A program made the translations under genes and the position numbers. Source: an uncultured archaeon (lineage in GTDB: Archaea > Asgardarchaeota > Lokiarchaeia > Sigyniarchaeales > SOKP01). From it: 33,198 nucleotides of DNA. The notes under the pieces are model-generated. The model was given only the letters and a program-made list of their open reading frames with translations, had not been told where the DNA came from and made no database searches. The DNA lies in contig CAZWEM010000036.1 in NCBI GenBank assembly GCA_964632315.1, positions 1 to 33,198 on the forward strand, written 5' to 3'. This document shows positions 3 through 33,198 of this stretch, in pieces (positions within the stretch are counted from its first letter, which is position 1; each line of letters begins with the position of its first letter).

Positions 3-509
3 TCATTTCACAGCCTCCAGTCCCTGCTTACGTGCGAGTTCGATCGATCGGAAGACTTCCGGGTCGCCTTTCACATCGGGGTGATGAATTTTCGACAGCT
101 TCCGGAACTGCCGCTCAATGTCTTCAGCCGTTTCGGGCATGCTGGTGAAGCCCAGCATGATGGCCCAGTTGGGGAGTGATGTAGGCTCCGGAAGTGATTT
201 CATCCCGCTGACCCACACTGAAAGGTCGTATACTCCTCTCGAAATTACCCTTGTGAGGTCCTCGAGGGCGAGTACCAAAATGATGAAACACTGTGTTCCT
301 CGGGTCACATTCGTGAACATGGTAGCCGCTTTCTCAGCACTATGCTCGAACCGGAAATACCCTCCCTTGTACCAGAAGGAAATGAAGGCGTCCTTTCGCC
401 CCCAGTCGTACTCCACCTTCGTGACGCCAAGCTTCTCGACAATGCGCTTCAGTTTCTTCTCGTACACGCTTGCATCTTGGCTAATTTTCAGTGTTGACCT
501 TTTGCCCAT
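3..509 (-). CDS. J-domain (DnaJ-type) protein with uncharacterised N-terminal domain
   Basis: C-terminal ...LGF...EDIERQFRKLSKIHHPDVKGDPEVF carries the HPD motif and J-domain helices. SD AAGGAG lies upstream of the ATG. Confidence 0.85.
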   Translation of the reverse strand: MGKRSTLKISQDASVYEKKLKRIVEKLGVTKVEYDWGRKDAFISFWYKGGYFRFEHSAEKAATMFTNVTRGTQCFIILVLALEDLTRVISRGVYDLSVWVSGMKSLPEPTSLPNWAIMLGFTSMPETAEDIERQFRKLSKIHHPDVKGDPEVFRSIELARKQGLEAVK

Positions 510-2135: not shown

Positions 2136-3946
2136 TGGCGGAAGCAACGTCCAGTACATCCCCCGAGAAGGATTTGTCGATATGGGTTGAGCCCCAGCGG
2201 CACATTGACGACTCCTACCCGCTTCTCTCGGGAACTTGGGTCACTCCGCGCAACGCCCATCTCAAGCGCCCACATCTTGTCATAACGCCACATCCCGATG
2301 CACCCCTGTTCACCCGCGACTCTAATCCTCGTCTTATTGTGCAGCAGCTGATCGATGAGGTTAGGGGTGGAAACTTTCCTACGAACGAGAAGATGCGGGC
2401 TTACCTGCGCCAAGCTGCCCTCGTCAACATGTTCTTCCATGCGAATGTCGTAGCAGGTTTCAACGGACCGTACCGTAACATGACTGATCATCTCCACCTC
2501 GACATGTGCAACTTCTACCAAACACAGTCGCGAATGCTCGGCCGAAAATATGCGGTATTCGAACCGCGATTTCACGGGAAAAGCACCGTGTTCGTGCATC
2601 ACTCTACTGAGTGGGACATCTCGCGAGGGGATGTGGAAAGCATAGGTATCTGTAGCGCAATATCCAACCGGGCCGAGGAATTCCTCGACTTCGTGAAAGA
2701 TGTGTTTGAGAAGAACCCGTTCTTTGCGTGGTTGTTTCCGGAAGTTCGAAAGCCGTCTCTCCGTGAGGGAAAGTGGAATGCTACCGAGATCGAAGTGAAC
2801 GGTGTGCGAGTTATTACCTTTGCCATCGGAGGTAGTGTCCAGGGTATCCACGTAGCCTCTCTAAAGATCGACGATCCCGTAGGCGAGGAACAGTTGAACG
2901 CAGATAGGCAAGCGAACGCGGATATGTACCGGATCCGAAACTGGATAAAGTCTAATCAGCGCACCTTGGTGAAGGATTGGGACCGCTCAACGGTGCTCTA
3001 CGTTGGCACCCGTTACGGGACAGACGACCCGGGCGAGGACATTTGCCAGAACATCGCTAAAAGGTATGGATGCTGGGATGACCTGCCGTACGGAGAGCGT
3101 GATGATGGAGAATGGCACGTATACTACCGCATGGTGGCTGAGCGCGACCGCATCGTGTATCCCGAGAAGGTGAGTAAGAAGAAGCTTATGCAGCTCCTTC
3201 GCGAAGACTGGTGGACTGGTGCCACCCAGTTCTTCAACTCTCCGCACCTCGCAGGAAGTAACGAGCTCGCAGGATATAGACTCGAGCCATGTTACCTCGA
3301 CACAGATGATGAAGGGAACTTTGTGTTGTCGTGGACTGACCTCACTTCAGGTCATCCCGAGACACGGGAATGCTATCTTGCCGATTGCGACATAATTGTC
3401 GCGACAGACCCTGCAGGAACAGAGAAGCGCATCAGTTCGAAGACAAGCCGCACTGCGGTTGTTGTCTATGTGCGCACCTACCACGATACCCGCCACATCA
3501 TCAACCTTCGTGTAGGGTATATGAAAACGACGAAGATGATGGACCACATGTTTTCGTTTTTCGGAACGTATTCGCCTCGCAAAAGCGTGCTCGAGACGCA
3601 GGGACCATTCAGGCTGTTGCGGGGTCTTATGGACGATGAGCAAGCGAAGAGAGAGAAATGGATCCACCTCGCTCCGCAGTCGGCTGTTGGTGATAAGGAT
3701 GCCAACATACGAACTACCCTTCAGCCACTGTTTGAGAAAGGACTCATCTATTGCGTCCCTACGGCAATAGACAATGTTATGCAGGAAGTGCGCATGTTTC
3801 CGAACAGTCGGAAGAAGGACATACTGGATGCGATAACTCTCGCGGAAAAGGCAAGTGTATGTCCGGAGTCCCCGGAGGTTATCGAAGAAGAGGAAGAGCG
3901 CGAGGAAATGATGGCTCTTGGACGTAATAGGGTTACTGGCTATTAA
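2135..3946 (+). CDS. terL: Terminase large subunit
   Basis: Walker A PRFHGKST, Walker B LKIDDP, coupling motif VGTRY, and RNase H-like nuclease acidic motifs ATDPA and KDILDA. Confidence 0.93.
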   Translation: MAEATSSTSPEKDLSIWVEPQRHIDDSYPLLSGTWVTPRNAHLKRPHLVITPHPDAPLFTRDSNPRLIVQQLIDEVRGGNFPTNEKMRAYLRQAALVNMFFHANVVAGFNGPYRNMTDHLHLDMCNFYQTQSRMLGRKYAVFEPRFHGKSTVFVHHSTEWDISRGDVESIGICSAISNRAEEFLDFVKDVFEKNPFFAWLFPEVRKPSLREGKWNATEIEVNGVRVITFAIGGSVQGIHVASLKIDDPVGEEQLNADRQANADMYRIRNWIKSNQRTLVKDWDRSTVLYVGTRYGTDDPGEDICQNIAKRYGCWDDLPYGERDDGEWHVYYRMVAERDRIVYPEKVSKKKLMQLLREDWWTGATQFFNSPHLAGSNELAGYRLEPCYLDTDDEGNFVLSWTDLTSGHPETRECYLADCDIIVATDPAGTEKRISSKTSRTAVVVYVRTYHDTRHIINLRVGYMKTTKMMDHMFSFFGTYSPRKSVLETQGPFRLLRGLMDDEQAKREKWIHLAPQSAVGDKDANIRTTLQPLFEKGLIYCVPTAIDNVMQEVRMFPNSRKKDILDAITLAEKASVCPESPEVIEEEEEREEMMALGRNRVTGY

Positions 3947-8363: not shown

Positions 8364-9311
8364 ATGGCACTTGTAACGACATCCACGCTCCCCAATCAAT
8401 ATGACAAAACGATCGACAAGATGATCATGGACGCCTACATGAAGATTGCGAGTGAGTACCCGCAGTTCTTCCAGGCATCTCCTGCGCCGAAAGGCAAAAC
8501 GTACAAGGAGTCCACGATCACCGGCCTCGGCAACATGCGGGAGCTCGGCGAAGGCGAAGGTGTCGACTTCGATCAGCCGGCAGAAGGCGATACGGTCGAG
8601 CGGTCGTACACCAAGTTCGGTCTGGGGTTCCAGATCGTCGAAGAGGCTGAGCAGGACGACATCCAGGGGAAGCTCCCTCGTGTAGCAGGCACCCTCGGGC
8701 GCTCGGCCGCACATAGGATCGACCTGTCCGCGTTTCAGATCCTCAACCTTGGCGATACGGTCGCTTCGGTAGCCGGTCGCGACGGGCTGGCGCTGTTCGC
8801 CGACAATCACGTCACGCTGAAAAGCGGTGACACCATCGACAACAAGGGAACTGCGGCACTGAGTGAGACTGCACTTCAGGCAGCCTTCGAGTATTTCAAC
8901 ACGCTGCTCACCCACGAAGGTTTCCCGGCTCAGCTTACCCTTTCGAAGGTGCTCGCAAGTGAGCCCAACCGCTGGATGCTCAACCGTCTGGCGAAGCAGC
9001 AGGGTGCGATCTCCACCTCGGGGGCAGCCCCCGACATGAGCGGCAACGACATGACGACCAACCCCGCGAATGGGTACGTCAATGCGTGGTCCGCGCATAT
9101 CCTTCGCTACCTCGGAGCCACTTTCGGTGGGGCCGCGGATGCGTGGTTTGCCCTCTCGCAGATGGCCGACCTGCGCCTGTTCTGGAAGTGGAAACCGCGG
9201 ACCGAAGCGGCGAGCGACTTCCGGACCGGCAACCGGCTGTACAAGCTCACCCTGCGCTTTCAGGCATTCTCGAACGACTACGAGACCATGTACGGCTCCT
9301 TTCCTACTTAG
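8364..9311 (+). CDS. Major capsid protein (HK97 fold, Mu gpT-like)
   Basis: 315 aa with motifs GLGNMRELGEG, YTKFGLGFQI, DGLALFADNH and AWF. Strong SD upstream and a terminator downstream. Confidence 0.85.
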   Translation: MALVTTSTLPNQYDKTIDKMIMDAYMKIASEYPQFFQASPAPKGKTYKESTITGLGNMRELGEGEGVDFDQPAEGDTVERSYTKFGLGFQIVEEAEQDDIQGKLPRVAGTLGRSAAHRIDLSAFQILNLGDTVASVAGRDGLALFADNHVTLKSGDTIDNKGTAALSETALQAAFEYFNTLLTHEGFPAQLTLSKVLASEPNRWMLNRLAKQQGAISTSGAAPDMSGNDMTTNPANGYVNAWSAHILRYLGATFGGAADAWFALSQMADLRLFWKWKPRTEAASDFRTGNRLYKLTLRFQAFSNDYETMYGSFPT

Positions 9312-27285: not shown

Positions 27286-28678
27286 CTTCTCCACTCGCCC
27301 AAACGTATGTTTGAAGGCCGTCCTTCTTCACCTTGTCTGTAAGTTCGCCATCATCCGACAATATCGCAACATCGCCAGTCTCCACCAATTGGTGTAGATG
27401 ATGTCGAAGTTCGTCCGCGCTACAATATCGACTGACTTTGCGGGTAAGTTCGCGTTGTGTAATTGGAGTATGTCGCTCAATGATGTTGCTAATGTTCTTT
27501 CGGGCTTTCGCCTCCGGACCCAGCCTAACACCATCAGTCGCTTCAGATCCGTTTCGGTAGGCGACGTCAAGGATCTTTTTCGCACTGAACAGGTCGTCAA
27601 GCGAGATCTCATTGCCAACTTCGTATCGCTGTATCCGGAGCAGCGTGGCGACCTTGAGTAGATTGATGTCTTTGCGGGCGACTTCATTCTGTTCCTCCTC
27701 GCTCATCGAGCGCTTTTTCGTCCAGTGCCCCTCATACCACTTTCGGTAAAACTCATCTGCTTGGGGAGTGAAGTGATATTCTCCTCGTGCATATCGCGAG
27801 ATCCACCACAACCTCTCAGCAAGATCGTCGAGTGTTGGTAGCCCGTCTTGGACTGAAGGCCGCGGAAAGCATCTCGTTGATTGCCTACAGTACACGATGT
27901 TGAGCCGGCTTACAAACCCTCCACCAGAAGCGTCTTCGGGGAAGGAGTTTTTGAAGTTGTCCGGAGTCGCCGCACTGAGGATAGTCATGTAGATGTTGCG
28001 AAGCTTCTCATGTCCGTCGCCCTTCGTGTACACCTCATCAGCGTCCAGTCCGTCGTAGAAGGAAGTTAGGGCGCCAATGAGTGTGTTGTTGTACTTCGCC
28101 TTATTGACGAGCTTCACCAACTCGTTGAGGAAAAACGACACTTGGCTACCGCGGTCCACCTCTACGAGTGTTCCGTCACTGCGAGTTGTGGTCTGCGCTT
28201 GGGGTTTCAGCCACGCACTCAGTCCTTCAGCTGTTATTTTTCCGCGGAAAACATTGAGATACTCACGAACCCTCTCGGGATTATCTGGTTCGAAATCGAT
28301 GAACCGCTGGGCTATTTTGTCCACGACGTTTATGGCTGCCGTTTTCTTCATCCCAGGTTGCCCAACGAGGACGGTGAACAGGTTGAGCCACAACGGATCC
28401 GGATACCACGGACCGTGCCACGCCATCCTGCGAACAACGGCGCTTAGTAGATTGAGCCCAGACCAGATAACGTACTCAGTTGTCGTTTCCATAAGTCGGG
28501 TTGCCAGTATGAGATCTGTGATGAAGCCTCTCTGAGGGACGAGTGCGTCTCCAGGCTCCGGCTTCCACAAGTGCGAAATAGGTCTTTCGTCGAAAGGTTT
28601 CGGAGGGTTGTCTGCGGTGAATTTCGATTGCCGGAGGGGCCGCGGCTTCCCTGTGTTGAAGTCTATCCAGTTTGCCAT
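27278..28678 (-). CDS. DUF3987-like P-loop ATPase, putative replicative helicase
   Basis: NLFTVLVGQPGMKKT (Walker A-like), TAEGL, FFLNEL (Walker B position), GGGFVSR (Arg finger) and a C-terminal winged helix. Adjacent to the polymerase. Confidence 0.7.
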   Translation of the reverse strand: MANWIDFNTGKPRPLRQSKFTADNPPKPFDERPISHLWKPEPGDALVPQRGFITDLILATRLMETTTEYVIWSGLNLLSAVVRRMAWHGPWYPDPLWLNLFTVLVGQPGMKKTAAINVVDKIAQRFIDFEPDNPERVREYLNVFRGKITAEGLSAWLKPQAQTTTRSDGTLVEVDRGSQVSFFLNELVKLVNKAKYNNTLIGALTSFYDGLDADEVYTKGDGHEKLRNIYMTILSAATPDNFKNSFPEDASGGGFVSRLNIVYCRQSTRCFPRPSVQDGLPTLDDLAERLWWISRYARGEYHFTPQADEFYRKWYEGHWTKKRSMSEEEQNEVARKDINLLKVATLLRIQRYEVGNEISLDDLFSAKKILDVAYRNGSEATDGVRLGPEAKARKNISNIIERHTPITQRELTRKVSRYCSADELRHHLHQLVETGDVAILSDDGELTDKVKKDGLQTYVWASGEDD

Positions 28679-31416
28679 TATGCCGCATCCCGCTCAAACG
28701 CCTTCAAGTCACCCCAGCTTCCACCAACTTCAACGTCAACCGGGAACTTCACGATCCTTCCGCGGAAGTCGACCTGTGCTGCCATCACCTCATTCACAAG
28801 GTTGATCAGCTCCTCCACCTCGTTCTCCCATGCCTCAAATATGAGTTGGTCATGAATCTGTATCTGGAACACAGAGCGCATCTCCCGTTCTCTCATGATG
28901 TCGTGGAGACGAATCGTTGCCATGTTGATAACGTGAGCGGCTGCTGACTGAGCGGGAAAGTTGAGTGCTTGCCGAACAATACCATTTTTGTCGCCATAGA
29001 AGGTGCGTGTCCGCTTGAAGGCACTGGTGTACTTCCTATAGCGAATGCGACCTCTGTACTGCTCAGGGATATCTTCCTGTCGGATGCCGGGTTTGTTGAT
29101 GTTGTCCTCGACCAGCTGGCGCCACAATGCGTAGGTAGGGTTAGCCTCGAAGTAGCGACGGGTCGCGCGCTGGAAGTCGGCGAAGGACAAGCGAATGTCA
29201 GGCACTTCAGTTATGACTTTCTCGTAAATACCGCGCTCAGTTCCCCCATAATTGAACAGGCCGAACTGTACCGTTTTTGCCGCCCGACGCATCGTGTCCC
29301 ACTTCTTGTCGTCCTTGTCGATTTGGAAAAGGTCGCGGGTGTTGATATCGTGTTGGTTAAGCCCCTCCTCGAATATGCGGATGAGGTTCGGCTCCATCGT
29401 CTCATAGGCCATGGTTCCGACCTCGAGGTTGATGTAGTCGGCACTGATGAACAGGCGGCCAGGCGGCGCAATGAACGACTTTCGCGCGTCTTTTTCGCGT
29501 TTCGGCCAGTTCTGTAGATCAATATCTTTCGACGAGTAACGTCCGGTTGCCGTGCCGATCGGTGAGAGGTGGGTGTAGATACGTCCCTTCTCGTCGGTTT
29601 TGAGGCGAGTGTAAGTGGAGATGAGTTTCTCGTTTCGCGCCCATATGTCGTAGGCAGTGAGCCACTTGAAGAGTTTGTCGAGCTGAGCTTTCTCCGCCTC
29701 ATGTTCCTCGGTCGGCCGACGGTAGAGACAAAGCTGGTCATAGCGCTTTTGGGCGAAAGCTCGAAGTCGCATTCTGTTGCCTTTGTCAGTTTTCATGAGC
29801 TTCTGACCATCGGTACGCTTTCCCTTGAACCCTATCGGCTGCCACAGCGGTGTCGTATTCTCCCACACACGTACTACTGCAGAATCGTCGGCAAACGCTT
29901 GCGTGTCATCTCGTACTACCTTCGCCGAAAGTCGCTTTGCCTGACGCGCGGCAGCCGCCCCATACTTCGAATCAGGCAGACCGTAGAGGAAAAGGCGTAA
30001 GTCGGAATCGTTGGTAAGCTTGAATTCCGGCGGTAAGTTCGCGGATTCGTAGAGGAACTTTGTGGCTGTCTTCATCTCCTTCTCGAGGCGAGTACGCCAC
30101 CGCTCGTTCTCTTCCTTATCCACCAACACACCGGTGAGCATCATTTCCATCGTTGCTGGCAACAGGGGAAGTTCTTCTTCGTAGTACACACTCTCTGATC
30201 CGCTTTCACGAAGGTCTTCGAGGAGTCCTGGGAGATCCTGCAGTAGAACAACGCAGTCGCGGCAGTTGTAGGTCCGGACACGTTTATCGGGGAGGGTAAG
30301 AATACTGACATCCTTTTTCAGTACGTTTTTCCAGAACGGTGTGTCACCGTAGACAGAGGTGATGAATCCGATGTTATGAGGAAGCTCGGGGGAGATTACG
30401 TGGTGGATTAGTAGGGTGTCGTGTTCGACTGAGCGCATCGTTGCAGGATAGCTATCGTGGTAGAGAAATGGGATATCGAACAGCCCGTACTGCAGTACAA
30501 GACGTGCGCCCTGTAGCACCTCTCCTACCAATTTTCGTACCTCTACGACCTCATCATCAGGCCAGTACTTTCCCCCACCCTGCTTCAACAGCGGTATGCA
30601 GATCGCATCTTCTTTCGACCAACCGAATCCGATGCAAACGGTTGTGCCACCTTCGAGTGCGGTGGTTTCAATGTCGATTGCTATGAGGCGATCACGCTTT
30701 AGGGCAAGATCCCGAAACGCGCGGACATCTTGGAGGGTGGGGTAAATGTTGAAGCGCTCTTTGGGGCGCGTCCAACCTTCGCGCGCGATACGTTCAGCTT
30801 TCGTGAGGTCAGCATGCCACACCAGTTCACGATCTACGGTCCCCTGGCCGATAGCATCGTCATCTGTTTTGGATGTATTGACAAAGCGTGCATGAAGGAA
30901 GGCTGCAGGATGGTAGGTGGGAATGACCAGAAGGTCATATTCTTCGGAAGGATCCTCAACGATAGAGCGTGTTTTGAGTGAGAGAGCGAATACCGATCCG
31001 CGGACATCTGTGACACTTCCCTCGATACCGAGAGTATTGAAGGCGTTCGCGCCGAGTGCCACAACAACGCGCAGGTGCTTCTCTGCGACAAGCCACTCCA
31101 GCTCCTCCCAGAATCCGTTCATCTCGTGCTGGAGGGCTTCGATCGCTTCCTTCGAGTTGAACTTGTTTTCAGGCGGCCGGCGCGTTAGGACGTTCGTGAC
31201 CCAACACTTTGGGCGATAGATCCCGCACATTGCAAGGCCCTTGTCGAGCTTCTCCCCTGCCCTACCTACGAATGGGTCCCCAGTAGCGTCTTCATCCGCC
31301 CCAGGTGCCTCTCCTATGAATGCAAGTGCCACATCGCCGGCGGGCCCGGTCCCCCACACGGCGCGCTTACTTTCCAGAGCGTAACCGGGTTTTATCAGCT
31401 TTCGGATGTAACGCAT
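28678..31416 (-). CDS. Family A DNA polymerase with N-terminal uracil-DNA glycosylase-like domain and 3'-5' exonuclease
   Basis: UDG motifs GEAPG..ED..G.PFVG.AG, TNV...RPP and TYHPAA. Exonuclease motifs DIETT, FD and YNCRD. Polymerase motifs TGRYSS, ADY..LE, RRAAK...FG and QIHD. Confidence 0.93.
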   Translation of the reverse strand: MRYIRKLIKPGYALESKRAVWGTGPAGDVALAFIGEAPGADEDATGDPFVGRAGEKLDKGLAMCGIYRPKCWVTNVLTRRPPENKFNSKEAIEALQHEMNGFWEELEWLVAEKHLRVVVALGANAFNTLGIEGSVTDVRGSVFALSLKTRSIVEDPSEEYDLLVIPTYHPAAFLHARFVNTSKTDDDAIGQGTVDRELVWHADLTKAERIAREGWTRPKERFNIYPTLQDVRAFRDLALKRDRLIAIDIETTALEGGTTVCIGFGWSKEDAICIPLLKQGGGKYWPDDEVVEVRKLVGEVLQGARLVLQYGLFDIPFLYHDSYPATMRSVEHDTLLIHHVISPELPHNIGFITSVYGDTPFWKNVLKKDVSILTLPDKRVRTYNCRDCVVLLQDLPGLLEDLRESGSESVYYEEELPLLPATMEMMLTGVLVDKEENERWRTRLEKEMKTATKFLYESANLPPEFKLTNDSDLRLFLYGLPDSKYGAAAARQAKRLSAKVVRDDTQAFADDSAVVRVWENTTPLWQPIGFKGKRTDGQKLMKTDKGNRMRLRAFAQKRYDQLCLYRRPTEEHEAEKAQLDKLFKWLTAYDIWARNEKLISTYTRLKTDEKGRIYTHLSPIGTATGRYSSKDIDLQNWPKREKDARKSFIAPPGRLFISADYINLEVGTMAYETMEPNLIRIFEEGLNQHDINTRDLFQIDKDDKKWDTMRRAAKTVQFGLFNYGGTERGIYEKVITEVPDIRLSFADFQRATRRYFEANPTYALWRQLVEDNINKPGIRQEDIPEQYRGRIRYRKYTSAFKRTRTFYGDKNGIVRQALNFPAQSAAAHVINMATIRLHDIMREREMRSVFQIQIHDQLIFEAWENEVEELINLVNEVMAAQVDFRGRIVKFPVDVEVGGSWGDLKAFERDAA

Positions 31417-31793: not shown

Positions 31794-31959
31794 CCTTTAC
31801 CTCCTGTTCGTGTTCTGCTGTCGCCTTATTGATGGCGTCGTTCTTGTCTCGCGCCACCTGCCCGTCACTTCTTCCGGCTTGTCTTCGGTTTCGCAGCTCG
31901 AGCACCACCACGAGGACTATCAGTCCTCCCACTATCACCAACAGTACCGCTGTGCTCAT
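31708..31959 (-). CDS. N-terminally anchored membrane protein (i-spanin/Rz-like)
   Basis: One N-terminal TM followed by a helical charged tail. AAGGAGGT SD. Overlaps the next gene by 86 nt. Confidence 0.6.
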   Translation of the reverse strand: MSTAVLLVIVGGLIVLVVVLELRNRRQAGRSDGQVARDKNDAINKATAEHEQEVKDATGNMSDSELASDLEHNLGGGQQDRPD

Positions 31960-32527
31960 CCTTCACCTCCTTTTCCTCGTAGAGTGTGCGACGATAGGCC
32001 TCACGCGAGGTCGTAGCGATCGCCCACGGGTAACGTGCTCTTGCGAGCCACGCCAGTCCGTCGTTCGGATCGAGCTCTGGACCGAACTCGACATACAGCT
32101 TCATCTGCTGGGAGGCGAGAATTGTGGGCTCGTCCTCGGTGCCGTCCTCGAGCACAAGATGGAGTTCGTTTACCGCAGTTCCCGCATAACGTCTTGCGAG
32201 TACTCGGTAGATGACCCAGTTTGCGATGTTCAAGGCTTCCGATGTTGGATTACCTTGCCAGTAGAGGTACGTGACACACTGCGGGTAGGTAGCACGCAGG
32301 GCCCCTACAAGTACCCGGAGTTCTGTCACAGGCACGAGTTCAAACCCCTCAAGGAGAAAGTGCCACTTCGCTCCGAGAAGCGCGAGGCGTGTCCGATCTA
32401 TGAAAGGTTTCAGGTCATCTGCTGTGGCTATCGGTTTCCCGCCTGCCTGTACACGGATCGCACAGACTAAGCTTCCAGTATTGAAGCCTGTTCGGATATT
32501 CTCGACTGTTATGCTTTTGATTTTCAC
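31865..32527 (-). CDS. Degenerate QueE/NrdG-like protein lacking the radical-SAM cysteine motif
   Basis: GTG 32527 with GGAGG SD. Motif order resembles QueE (see findings). No CxxxCxxC. Confidence 0.5.
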   Translation of the reverse strand: MKIKSITVENIRTGFNTGSLVCAIRVQAGGKPIATADDLKPFIDRTRLALLGAKWHFLLEGFELVPVTELRVLVGALRATYPQCVTYLYWQGNPTSEALNIANWVIYRVLARRYAGTAVNELHLVLEDGTEDEPTILASQQMKLYVEFGPELDPNDGLAWLARARYPWAIATTSREAYRRTLYEEKEVKDEHSGTVGDSGRTDSPRGGARAAKPKTSRKK

Positions 32528-32537
32528 TATTGCCTCC

Positions 32538-32568
32538 AAACAAAAGGCGGCCCCGTTAGGAGGCCGCC
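32538..32568 (-). terminator. Rho-independent terminator after the SSB-like gene
   Basis: Minus strand reads GGCGGCC-loop-GGCCGCC followed by TTTTGTTT. Confidence 0.8.
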
Positions 32569-32597
32569 CTTGTCCAAGTAAGGGTGGCTGCAGGCCG

Positions 32598-33020
32598 TCA
32601 GCTGGCAGTGGGTGCGGGGACGTACTTTGCGACGCGATGCCGCGCCTCGCCCTCGAACGGCTCCTGCTTCGTGCGAAAGTACACGACTTTCCCGTCCAGC
32701 TCGTCGTCGTCGAACCCACTGTCGTCGAACGGAATTTCGGCCGCGGTGAGGAACTGGTTCAGGCGAACCCGCGCCATCTTTCCACCATCCTTGTGGGTCT
32801 TCTGCGGCAGCACGAGCTGATCGAAGACTCTCCGCCCCTGCGGGTCGGCACCGTTCTCCTGCACCGGACCTTCGATGACTTCGATGTCCAATGACAGCAT
32901 CGGGTCATTCGTCTTGGTCTTGGTCCACTCGTGCTTCAGGATGCTTCCCGCATACAGAGCAACGTCCAGTGGGGGATCGGGCAGGCCATCAGTCTCGAGA
33001 TTGGAAACATCTACGCGCAT
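32598..33020 (-). CDS. DUF669-like OB-fold single-stranded DNA-binding protein
   Basis: Y..I...EWTKTK...PMLSLDIEVIEG...GRRVFDQL...RLNQFL.A...L.GK pattern. ATG 33020 with AAGGAGG SD. Confidence 0.7.
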   Translation of the reverse strand: MRVDVSNLETDGLPDPPLDVALYAGSILKHEWTKTKTNDPMLSLDIEVIEGPVQENGADPQGRRVFDQLVLPQKTHKDGGKMARVRLNQFLTAAEIPFDDSGFDDDELDGKVVYFRTKQEPFEGEARHRVAKYVPAPTAS

Positions 33021-33096
33021 ATGCGCCTCCTTGTGCTCCCGGAGGAGCGATTGGTATAGCCTCAACGCGAGGCTACGGTGGGGCTTACTGCCCCGA

Positions 33097-33136
33097 CACA
33101 GGTGGGGGGAATCGAACCCCCCTAACCGCTACCTGT
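33097..33136 (-). ncRNA. Minimal tRNA-like element (acceptor stem + D-loop mimic + T-arm, no anticodon arm)
   Basis: Minus strand reads ACAGGT-AGCGGTTA-GGGGGG-TTCGATT-CCCCCC-ACCTGT-G. Confidence 0.6.
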
Positions 33137-33198
33137 TAGTGAGTAATGGGAATGTGAGCGAGATCGTAGAGAGCGAGTGTGACGTTGCGAGTCATCCT

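Follow-up and report, generated by a model that had tools for sequence, protein, structure and literature searches.

A 40-nt tRNA-like minihelix in the leader of a phage replication operon, tentatively read as a signal for host tRNA-processing enzymes

The stack of acceptor and T arms, together with the T-loop, is what RNase P, RNase Z and the CCA-adding enzyme read in a tRNA, and elements that retain this part outside of genuine tRNAs have been described in several settings. One case is that of the plant mitochondrial t-elements, which direct RNase P and RNase Z cuts at the ends of mRNAs, the cut sites having been experimentally mapped (Forner et al. 2007, PMC1920247), and for which the T-arm motif GGTTCRANYCC serves as a means of finding further examples (PMC1920247). 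RNase P also cuts substrates that are not tRNAs, including the phage M3 and C4 RNAs and operon mRNAs (PMC11143913). A full-text search of the literature retrieved no paper on tRNA-like punctuation of phage operons, and the RNA families treated in a 2026 preprint on tRNA mimics in bacteria are different ones. Here we describe a 40-nt element, E1, which judged by its sequence and homologies is a tRNA-derived mimic of the top half of a tRNA, and which occupies a position in front of phage replication genes where a genuine tRNA or larger non-decoding tRNA-like structures (67-100 nt) are found in related phages.

The minihelix and the contig that carries it

C36, a contig of 47,922 bp that was binned with an archaeal MAG, begins with the window, i.e., the whole stretch of DNA that was analysed (33,198 bases). 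The contig encodes a SU10-type portal, a phage capsid protein, a GroES-like Cpn10 and a LexA-type DNA-binding domain, along with a DUF3987 primase/helicase-like protein, a UDG-PolA fusion, a Sak4-like AAA_24 protein and a PD-(D/E)XK nuclease. Its genes have strong Shine-Dalgarno sites and its GC content is 54%, versus an average of 33% for the assembly. Owing to this gene content, the strong Shine-Dalgarno sites and the GC mismatch, C36 looks like a tailed bacteriophage mis-binned into an archaeal MAG and not like an archaeal virus. A split or intron-bearing archaeal tRNA was dropped as a candidate identity for the element on the basis of the GroES-like gene, the LexA-type domain, the SU10-type portal and the 54% versus 33% GC.

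E1 is intergenic, between a Tad2-like gene and a DUF669 gene, and lies 76 nt upstream of the start codon of the latter. The sequence-only reading, made from the letters and open reading frames of the window, had placed it before the replication genes, and it does sit in the 5' leader of the first of these, i.e., DUF669. The genes concerned are:

C36 33302-33811 (L003:3302-3811, L003 being the rest of the contig), minus strand: Tad2-like gene (Thoeris anti-defence 2; Pfam E=5.5e-23), upstream of E1 and outside the window
32598..33020, minus strand: DUF669-family gene, 140 aa (the 'SSB' of the sequence-only reading), at the head of a co-oriented run toward the polymerase
28678-31416, minus strand: UDG-PolA gene, to which the co-oriented run that starts at DUF669 leads

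The DUF669 protein is a putative SSB by a borderline Pfam match, a PDB profile search gave a non-significant match to PrgE (E=0.15), and neither a word search nor an IMG/VR back-translation found a close relative of it.

The element itself is 40 nt long (33097-33136, minus strand) and consists of two perfect 6-bp stems and a canonical T-loop, exactly as first described, with the following parts:

33131..33136, minus strand: 5' strand of the acceptor-like stem, ACAGGT (sequence and folding)
33123..33130, minus strand: linker, an 8-nt bulge in the place of tRNA nucleotides 8-48
33117..33122, minus strand: 5' strand of the T stem, a run of six G (sequence)
33110..33116, minus strand: T-loop, TTCGATT, corresponding to T54-T55-C56-R57-A58
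33104..33109, minus strand: 3' strand of the T stem, a run of six C (sequence)
33098..33103, minus strand: 3' strand of the acceptor-like stem, ACCTGT, which runs on from the T stem without a break
33097, minus strand: discriminator-like unpaired G, with no CCA after it (sequence)

The bulge is located where the D and anticodon arms of a tRNA would exit the helix, and the T arm as a whole fits GGTTCRANYCC. The comparison with the top half of a tRNA holds on these points: the 3' strand is continuous over about 12 bp (6+6 bp), the 7-nt T-loop is closed by a G53-C61 pair, and there is no decoding arm. A discriminator G is present, after which the DNA encodes no CCA; a CCA on the RNA would be one added afterwards. 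Folded alone, the 40-mer forms a bulged 12-bp helix of -19.0 kcal/mol that makes up 81% of the ensemble; within 184 nt of context the T stem has p=0.94 and the outer stem p=0.32, owing to competing pairings. In stability the fold stands out only a little (z=-2.3; three shuffles out of 200 are equally good). One alternative hairpin, first pointed to by a partial Rfam alignment to tRNA-Sec, overlaps the 5' stem of E1 and is mutually exclusive with it:

33122..33139, minus strand: alternative hairpin CTAAC / 8-nt loop / GTTAG, in which 33139-33135 pairs with 33126-33122

At -13.8 versus -19.4 kcal/mol for the E1 fold it is 5.6 kcal/mol worse, and its pair probability is below 0.01.

As had been anticipated, tRNA scanners pass over the element. 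ARAGORN called no tRNA or tmRNA gene, whether in the window or on the remainder of the contig (L003), and Rfam gave no tRNA match in the window, the best being a partial one to tRNA-Sec (17.9 bits, E=0.89), so that E1 does not classify as a canonical tRNA (RF00005). Nor did mascRNA-menRNA (RF01684), tmRNA or other Rfam tRNA mimics reach the gathering score in the window. An intrinsic terminator was rejected as the identity of E1 because a U tract is absent, and the region 32500-33198, including the 33137-33198 stretch upstream of E1, shows no sigma-70-like promoter or intrinsic terminator. Two 100-base stretches of C36, at 33199-33298 next to the window and at 39203-39302, read as N, and the first of them may hold a promoter or terminator that governs the transcription of E1. 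Between E1 and the DUF669 start codon the leader continues as follows:

33080..33094, minus strand: first leader hairpin, 5 bp with a 5-nt loop, starting 3 nt past the discriminator
33056..33076, minus strand: second leader hairpin, 8 bp with a 5-nt loop (folding)
33035..33048, minus strand: third leader hairpin, 5 bp with a 4-nt loop (folding)
33026..33032, minus strand: Shine-Dalgarno sequence AAGGAGG, 5 nt upstream of the ATG at 33020

The E1 leader is a series of four hairpins, with z=-4.0 over 136 nt.

A paralogue on the contig and the DUF669 slot in related phages

Scanning C36 for T-arm-like hairpins revealed only one other perfect case (44962-44978, on the same strand as E1), and this belongs to a larger element:

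C36 44954-45020 (L003:14954-15020), minus strand: E2, a 67-nt compact cloverleaf (folding, z=-4.2), outside the window

In E2 the acceptor stem is of 8 bp, the D-like arm is of 4 bp and has GG in its loop, and the anticodon-like arm is of 8 bp and has 6 nt in its loop (6-8 nt as an 'anticodon' loop); a T arm completes the fold, and a variable region is absent. Its 3' end lies 4 nt before the GAGGAGG Shine-Dalgarno sequence and ATG of a 62-codon gene, and it is preceded by ca. 500 nt without a sizeable ORF. The sole Rfam match of E2 is to the mascRNA model (RF01684), at 23.2 bits and below the gathering score of 42.5.

The two elements are identical at 26 of the 34 positions of a common core, which begins at CTAAC and ends on the 3' side of the T stem, including a 9-mer and a 6-mer that are found nowhere else on C36. 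Upstream of CTAAC the likeness of the flanks is not significant (86 of 500 shuffles were equal), i.e., the homology starts exactly at CTAAC. The T stems differ at two pairs, both compensatory, and the acceptor stems are unrelated in sequence and each perfectly paired. What corresponds to the 5' stem and linker of E1 is the 5' strand, loop and 3' strand of the anticodon-like arm of E2: ACAGGT equals the end of the 5' strand of that arm plus the start of its loop, and the 3' strand of E1 is complementary, at all six positions, to nucleotides that in the homologous E2 arm are located in the loop. The alternative hairpin of E1 (33122..33139) is likewise the homologue of that arm. This pattern of homology argues against two further proposals of the sequence-only reading, namely that E1 arose from a tRNA by a clean deletion and that its linker is a D-loop. 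The 5' stem of E1 reuses an anticodon-like arm, and the linker, whose E2 counterpart belongs to that same arm and which a natural variant alters (see below), is not a D-loop by descent. By sequence, E1 is a partial copy of an E2-type element, comprising its anticodon-like arm and T arm, and the acceptor stem looks as if it had been re-made after the loss of its original 5' strand.

For a comparison beyond C36 we fetched 90 related loci, whose polymerases are at most 44% identical to that of C36, and located the DUF669 homologues in them. Four of these loci carry a tRNA-like element directly 5' of DUF669 and on its strand, as E1 is in C36:

L004 slot, 8581-8651, plus strand: a genuine tRNA-Met(CAU) (Rfam 61.8 bits)
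L090 slot, DUF669 strand: a 67-nt compact cloverleaf like E2, non-tRNA (Rfam best 26.5 bits, tRNA-Sec)
L016 slot, DUF669 strand: a 95-nt four-way element, non-decoding (scan and folding)
L012 slot, DUF669 strand: a 100-nt four-way element, non-decoding (scan and folding)

All five elements, E1 included, have a 7-bp acceptor stem (in E1, 6 bp and an A-C mismatch) and a 5-bp T stem, in which 52-62 and 53-61 are G-C pairs. In each of them the loop reads TTCRANT, the discriminator is a purine and CCA is not encoded. The insert between the 5' strand of the acceptor and the T stem measures 8, 35, 39, 63 or 68 nt, so that, compared by sequence, only the acceptor/T-arm helix is kept across the slot while the middle varies between 8 and 68 nt. 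The tRNA-Met of L004 has, like E1 and E2, A1-U72 as its first pair, lacks an encoded CCA and has a terminator-like hairpin immediately 5' of it; it also shares with E1 an 8-nt stretch just 5' of CTAAC.

An acceptor-plus-T-arm scanner gave 13 matches in the 1.16 Mb of related loci, with ten shuffles averaging 3.2 (range 0-6). Five of the 13 lie at most 250 nt upstream of DUF669 on the same strand, where ca. 0.005 would be expected over 13 loci (calculated by applying the shuffle rate to 250 nt in each locus). In E1, E2 and the elements of L012, L016, L089 and L090, 82 of 84 acceptor/T pairs hold, a count that is partly circular since the elements were chosen by a scan that requires pairing; the pairs were counted by a script, and a MAFFT alignment gave no structural register for the tRNA-like elements. 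It is the E2 paralogue, the scanner excess and the clustering in the slot, not thermodynamics alone, that mark E1 as more than a chance hairpin.

The element is dispensable, given that ca. 8 of 13 relatives have nothing tRNA-like in the slot. Two or three hairpins precede the DUF669 start in relatives with or without a tRNA-like element, and the discriminator is followed, after 2-3 nt, by a stable hairpin in C36, L004 and L090. The slot of L006, L010 and L097 holds a sigma-70-like promoter and, behind it, a hairpin, which would be an equivalent route to a hairpin-capped 5' end, and L007/L091, L009 and L020 have hairpins alone. No ribozyme takes the place of the element in this clade, as Rfam matched nothing at gathering score either in the window or in the nine relatives searched.

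A second minimal top-half form was found in L089 (5527-5572, plus strand). Its 46 nt combine a 6-bp stem and a T-T mismatch with a 14-nt linker and the T-loop of E1. It is otherwise unrelated to E1 in sequence, and precedes a different small module gene, ca. 450 nt upstream of the polymerase. L089 is an AT-rich relative. In its sisters L093 and L094 the aligned place holds a larger or weaker version, an outer stem and a 3'-proximal T arm with several G-U pairs. Further T-arm-like hairpins were seen in L016 (ca. 2183-2256, plus strand), with a 5-bp acceptor-like stem and an end 3 nt before a Shine-Dalgarno sequence just past the DUF669 gene, and in L090 (ca. 112-135, plus strand), with the loop TGCAAGT, just upstream of the slot element.

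Contigs with the same phage DNA are present in at least four salt-marsh metagenome runs, and contigs of four runs cover E1; the sequencing runs listed with the phage are DNA metagenomes throughout. Two are identical to the window and two (X1 and X4) carry a variant haplotype, with T>C at 33124 in the linker and one G fewer in the G-run. The first change falls in the unpaired linker of the E1 fold and would break one pair of the alternative hairpin; the second shortens the T stem from 6 bp to the canonical 5 bp and leaves a C unpaired at the junction, giving a helix of 6 bp, one mismatch and 5 bp, while the outer stem and the T-loop are unaltered. The perfect pairing on which the sequence-only reading relied is thus true of the reference (6+6 bp) but is not a fixed form in the population. 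One SNP and one 1-nt deletion in a 43-nt element is about the rate of the flanks; no extra constraint on E1 is visible in the population variation, by which constraint is neither demonstrated nor ruled out. Positions 33124, 33117 and 33160 and ca. 27 others are variable within 31800-33198, where at least two to three haplotypes exist, ca. 1-2% apart. A pattern scan of metagenomes returned the same phage only, with E2 unchanged, in an independent assembly (L088, JGI contig Ga0315542_1013504) that is 99.7% identical over 3.2 kb and extends ca. 700 bases past the end of C36. No match to 32000-33198 was obtained by blastn against 50,697 phage records, and exact pattern scans of IMG/VR found neither E1 nor a second pattern that fits E2 alone.

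A candidate cis signal and competing explanations

The acceptor/T stack is kept across unrelated elements, a real tRNA can occupy the same slot and a hairpin follows the discriminator; owing to these observations we favor, tentatively and at somewhat short of an even chance, the reading that E1 acts in cis as a signal to the RNase P and RNase Z of the host, in the leader of the DUF669-PolA replication operon. The proposal builds on the structure of E1, its tRNA ancestry, its paralogue, the recurrence in the slot and the retention of the acceptor/T helix alone, and would add to these transcription through E1, two cleavages and an effect on the mRNA. E1 would have descended from a compact non-decoding cloverleaf such as E2 or the L090 element, and would have been reduced to the sole part recognised by the enzymes that process tRNA ends. 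Presumably transcribed within the leader of the DUF669-PolA operon, it would be cut by host RNase P between 33137 and 33136 and, after the discriminator G33097, by RNase Z or another 3' tRNase. The two cuts together would separate the replication message from upstream transcripts and give it a defined end, a 5' monophosphate that precedes a GC hairpin by two nucleotides, and this hairpin-capped end may protect the message from 5'-end-dependent decay. The excised minihelix of ca. 40 nt would be a by-product. Against such a signal stand the missing encoded CCA and the modest probability of the outer stem in its longer context; E. coli-type RNase P prefers CCA. The dispensability of the element among relatives and a population variation on a par with the flanks, with its deletion in the T stem, count against it as well.

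More broadly, and with a little more reserve, we postulate that phages of the UDG-PolA/DUF669 kind keep a punctuation mark in front of their replication genes, which would lead in a series from a true tRNA through a 67-nt cloverleaf to a 40-nt minihelix, selection acting only on the part read by RNase P and RNase Z. No member would be smaller than E1, whose acceptor stem would have been rebuilt from anticodon-arm nucleotides, and bacterial viruses would have in such marks their equivalent of the tRNA punctuation and t-elements of mitochondria.

The main rival, unlikely in our estimate but to be taken seriously, is that E1 is a functionless relic of a former phage tRNA or tRNA-like gene that lost its 5' third and has not yet decayed, in which case the locus would be an instance of ordinary tRNA gene decay. 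An intact tRNA-Met in the L004 slot that has 8 nt in common with E1, the empty slot of most relatives, the weakened, G-U-bearing stems of L093 and L094, a haplotype with a shortened T stem and a polymorphism that is not below that of the flanks would all agree with it. Neutral decay, however, should strike the acceptor and T stems as it does the D and anticodon arms, whereas nearly all pairs of the former hold (with the circularity mentioned above) and in E1, E2, L012, L016, L089 and L090 the decoding parts are either missing or have 8-68 nt of unrelated sequence in their place. The full complementarity of the 3' strand of E1 to E2 loop nucleotides, as in a re-made stem, and the compensatory differences between the T stems of E1 and E2 likewise speak against decay. 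The claim of the sequence-only reading that E1 is a mimic and not a decayed tRNA is supported to the extent that the comparative data favor a maintained acceptor/T-arm helix over plain decay, though not by way of the clean deletion on which it leaned. Descent from a host gene instead, as an attP remnant copied from the 3' end of a host tRNA, is highly improbable. It is true that the T arm and the 3' acceptor strand are the part that integrases commonly duplicate, but no tyrosine or large serine recombinase or integrase was mapped on the 48-kb contig, no second copy of E1 occurs in the assembly, a paralogue exists within the genome and related elements are found in phages of unrelated sequence. 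Moreover, the 3' 20-mer of E1 has one exact match among 185,579 prokaryotic species genomes (one per species), about the chance expectation, and this lies inside a 383-aa protein-coding ORF and not in a tRNA gene. The comparison with host tRNA 3' ends that had been suggested as a check on E1, made here across these species genomes, lends no support to an integration relic.

Two other explanations grant E1 a function of a different kind. It could be a leader structure that works independently of tRNA enzymes, e.g., a 5' stabiliser or an operator for a phage protein, as in the autoregulation of an SSB-like gene, of which T4 gene 32 is an example. We regard this as rather improbable: the row of four hairpins with its low z-score, and the two or three hairpins that relatives have before DUF669 regardless of a tRNA-like element, would be expected of it, but it leaves unexplained the T-loop consensus, the G53-C61 pair and the 7+5 bp stacking in five sequence-unrelated phages, as well as the occupation of the slot by a genuine tRNA. 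Alternatively, the excised and perhaps CCA-tailed minihelix could act in trans as a decoy or sponge for a defence system or an enzyme that reads acceptor ends or the tRNA elbow. With a Tad2-like gene, of an anti-Thoeris sponge family, immediately upstream, the neighbourhood may hold counter-defence functions, and the phage keeps two such elements. However, an RNA that lacks an anticodon arm cannot decoy anticodon nucleases, nothing ties E1 to any defence system, and the placement of the elements, always just 5' of a ribosome-binding site or a leader hairpin, is better suited to a role in cis, which makes a trans-acting RNA improbable.

E1 beside known tRNA-like elements

If the cuts proposed for the cis signal do occur, these phages would use host tRNA-maturation enzymes to divide and stabilise their messages, a mode that is documented for mitochondria, and many 'orphan' T-arm hairpins and odd pseudo-tRNAs of phage genomes that tRNA scanners skip could be accounted for in the same manner. 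A single conserved slot that spans a working tRNA and a 40-nt minihelix would also be a natural substrate series for the minimal in vivo needs of RNase P and RNase Z.

A close comparison within the phages is the tRNA-Met of L004, which resembles E1 in slot, strand, first pair, absence of an encoded CCA and the leader hairpins that follow, and differs from it in being a full cloverleaf with a CAU anticodon, whereas E1 has neither D arm nor anticodon arm and is non-decoding. Phage-encoded precedents for a helix of this length exist in phi80 M3 and the P1/P7 C4 antisense RNA, which like pre-4.5S RNA contain a coaxial helix of ca. 12 bp recognised by RNase P (PMC11143913). These RNAs are end products themselves, several of them with a 3' CCA-like tail, whereas E1 is without CCA and lies in an mRNA leader. 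Among eukaryotes, mascRNA and the MEN-beta element (RF01684) are tRNA-like folds within a longer transcript, from which they are excised by RNase P and RNase Z; they belong to nuclear lncRNAs, and of the two C36 elements E2 scores below the gathering threshold of their model and E1 does not match it. Armless mitochondrial tRNAs and the tRNA-like domain of tmRNA show a comparable reduction of tRNA architecture that keeps the acceptor end; these are aminoacylated and act in translation, unlike E1, which has no anticodon, tag reading frame or CCA.

A close likeness is also that to the mitochondrial t-elements (PMC1920247). Both are non-decoding tRNA-like folds with an acceptor-like stem and a T arm that fits GGTTCRANYCC in a non-canonical fold beside an mRNA coding region, and both are interchangeable with real tRNAs at the same gene boundary, in our case through the tRNA-Met of L004 and the non-decoding elements of L012, L016 and L090. 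The t-elements are organellar and their cut sites are mapped, whereas E1 is viral, is known from its sequence and, at 40 nt, is smaller than the t-elements described. What this locus adds to them is a full series at one slot, together with an acceptor stem that appears to have been rebuilt from the nucleotides of a former anticodon arm.
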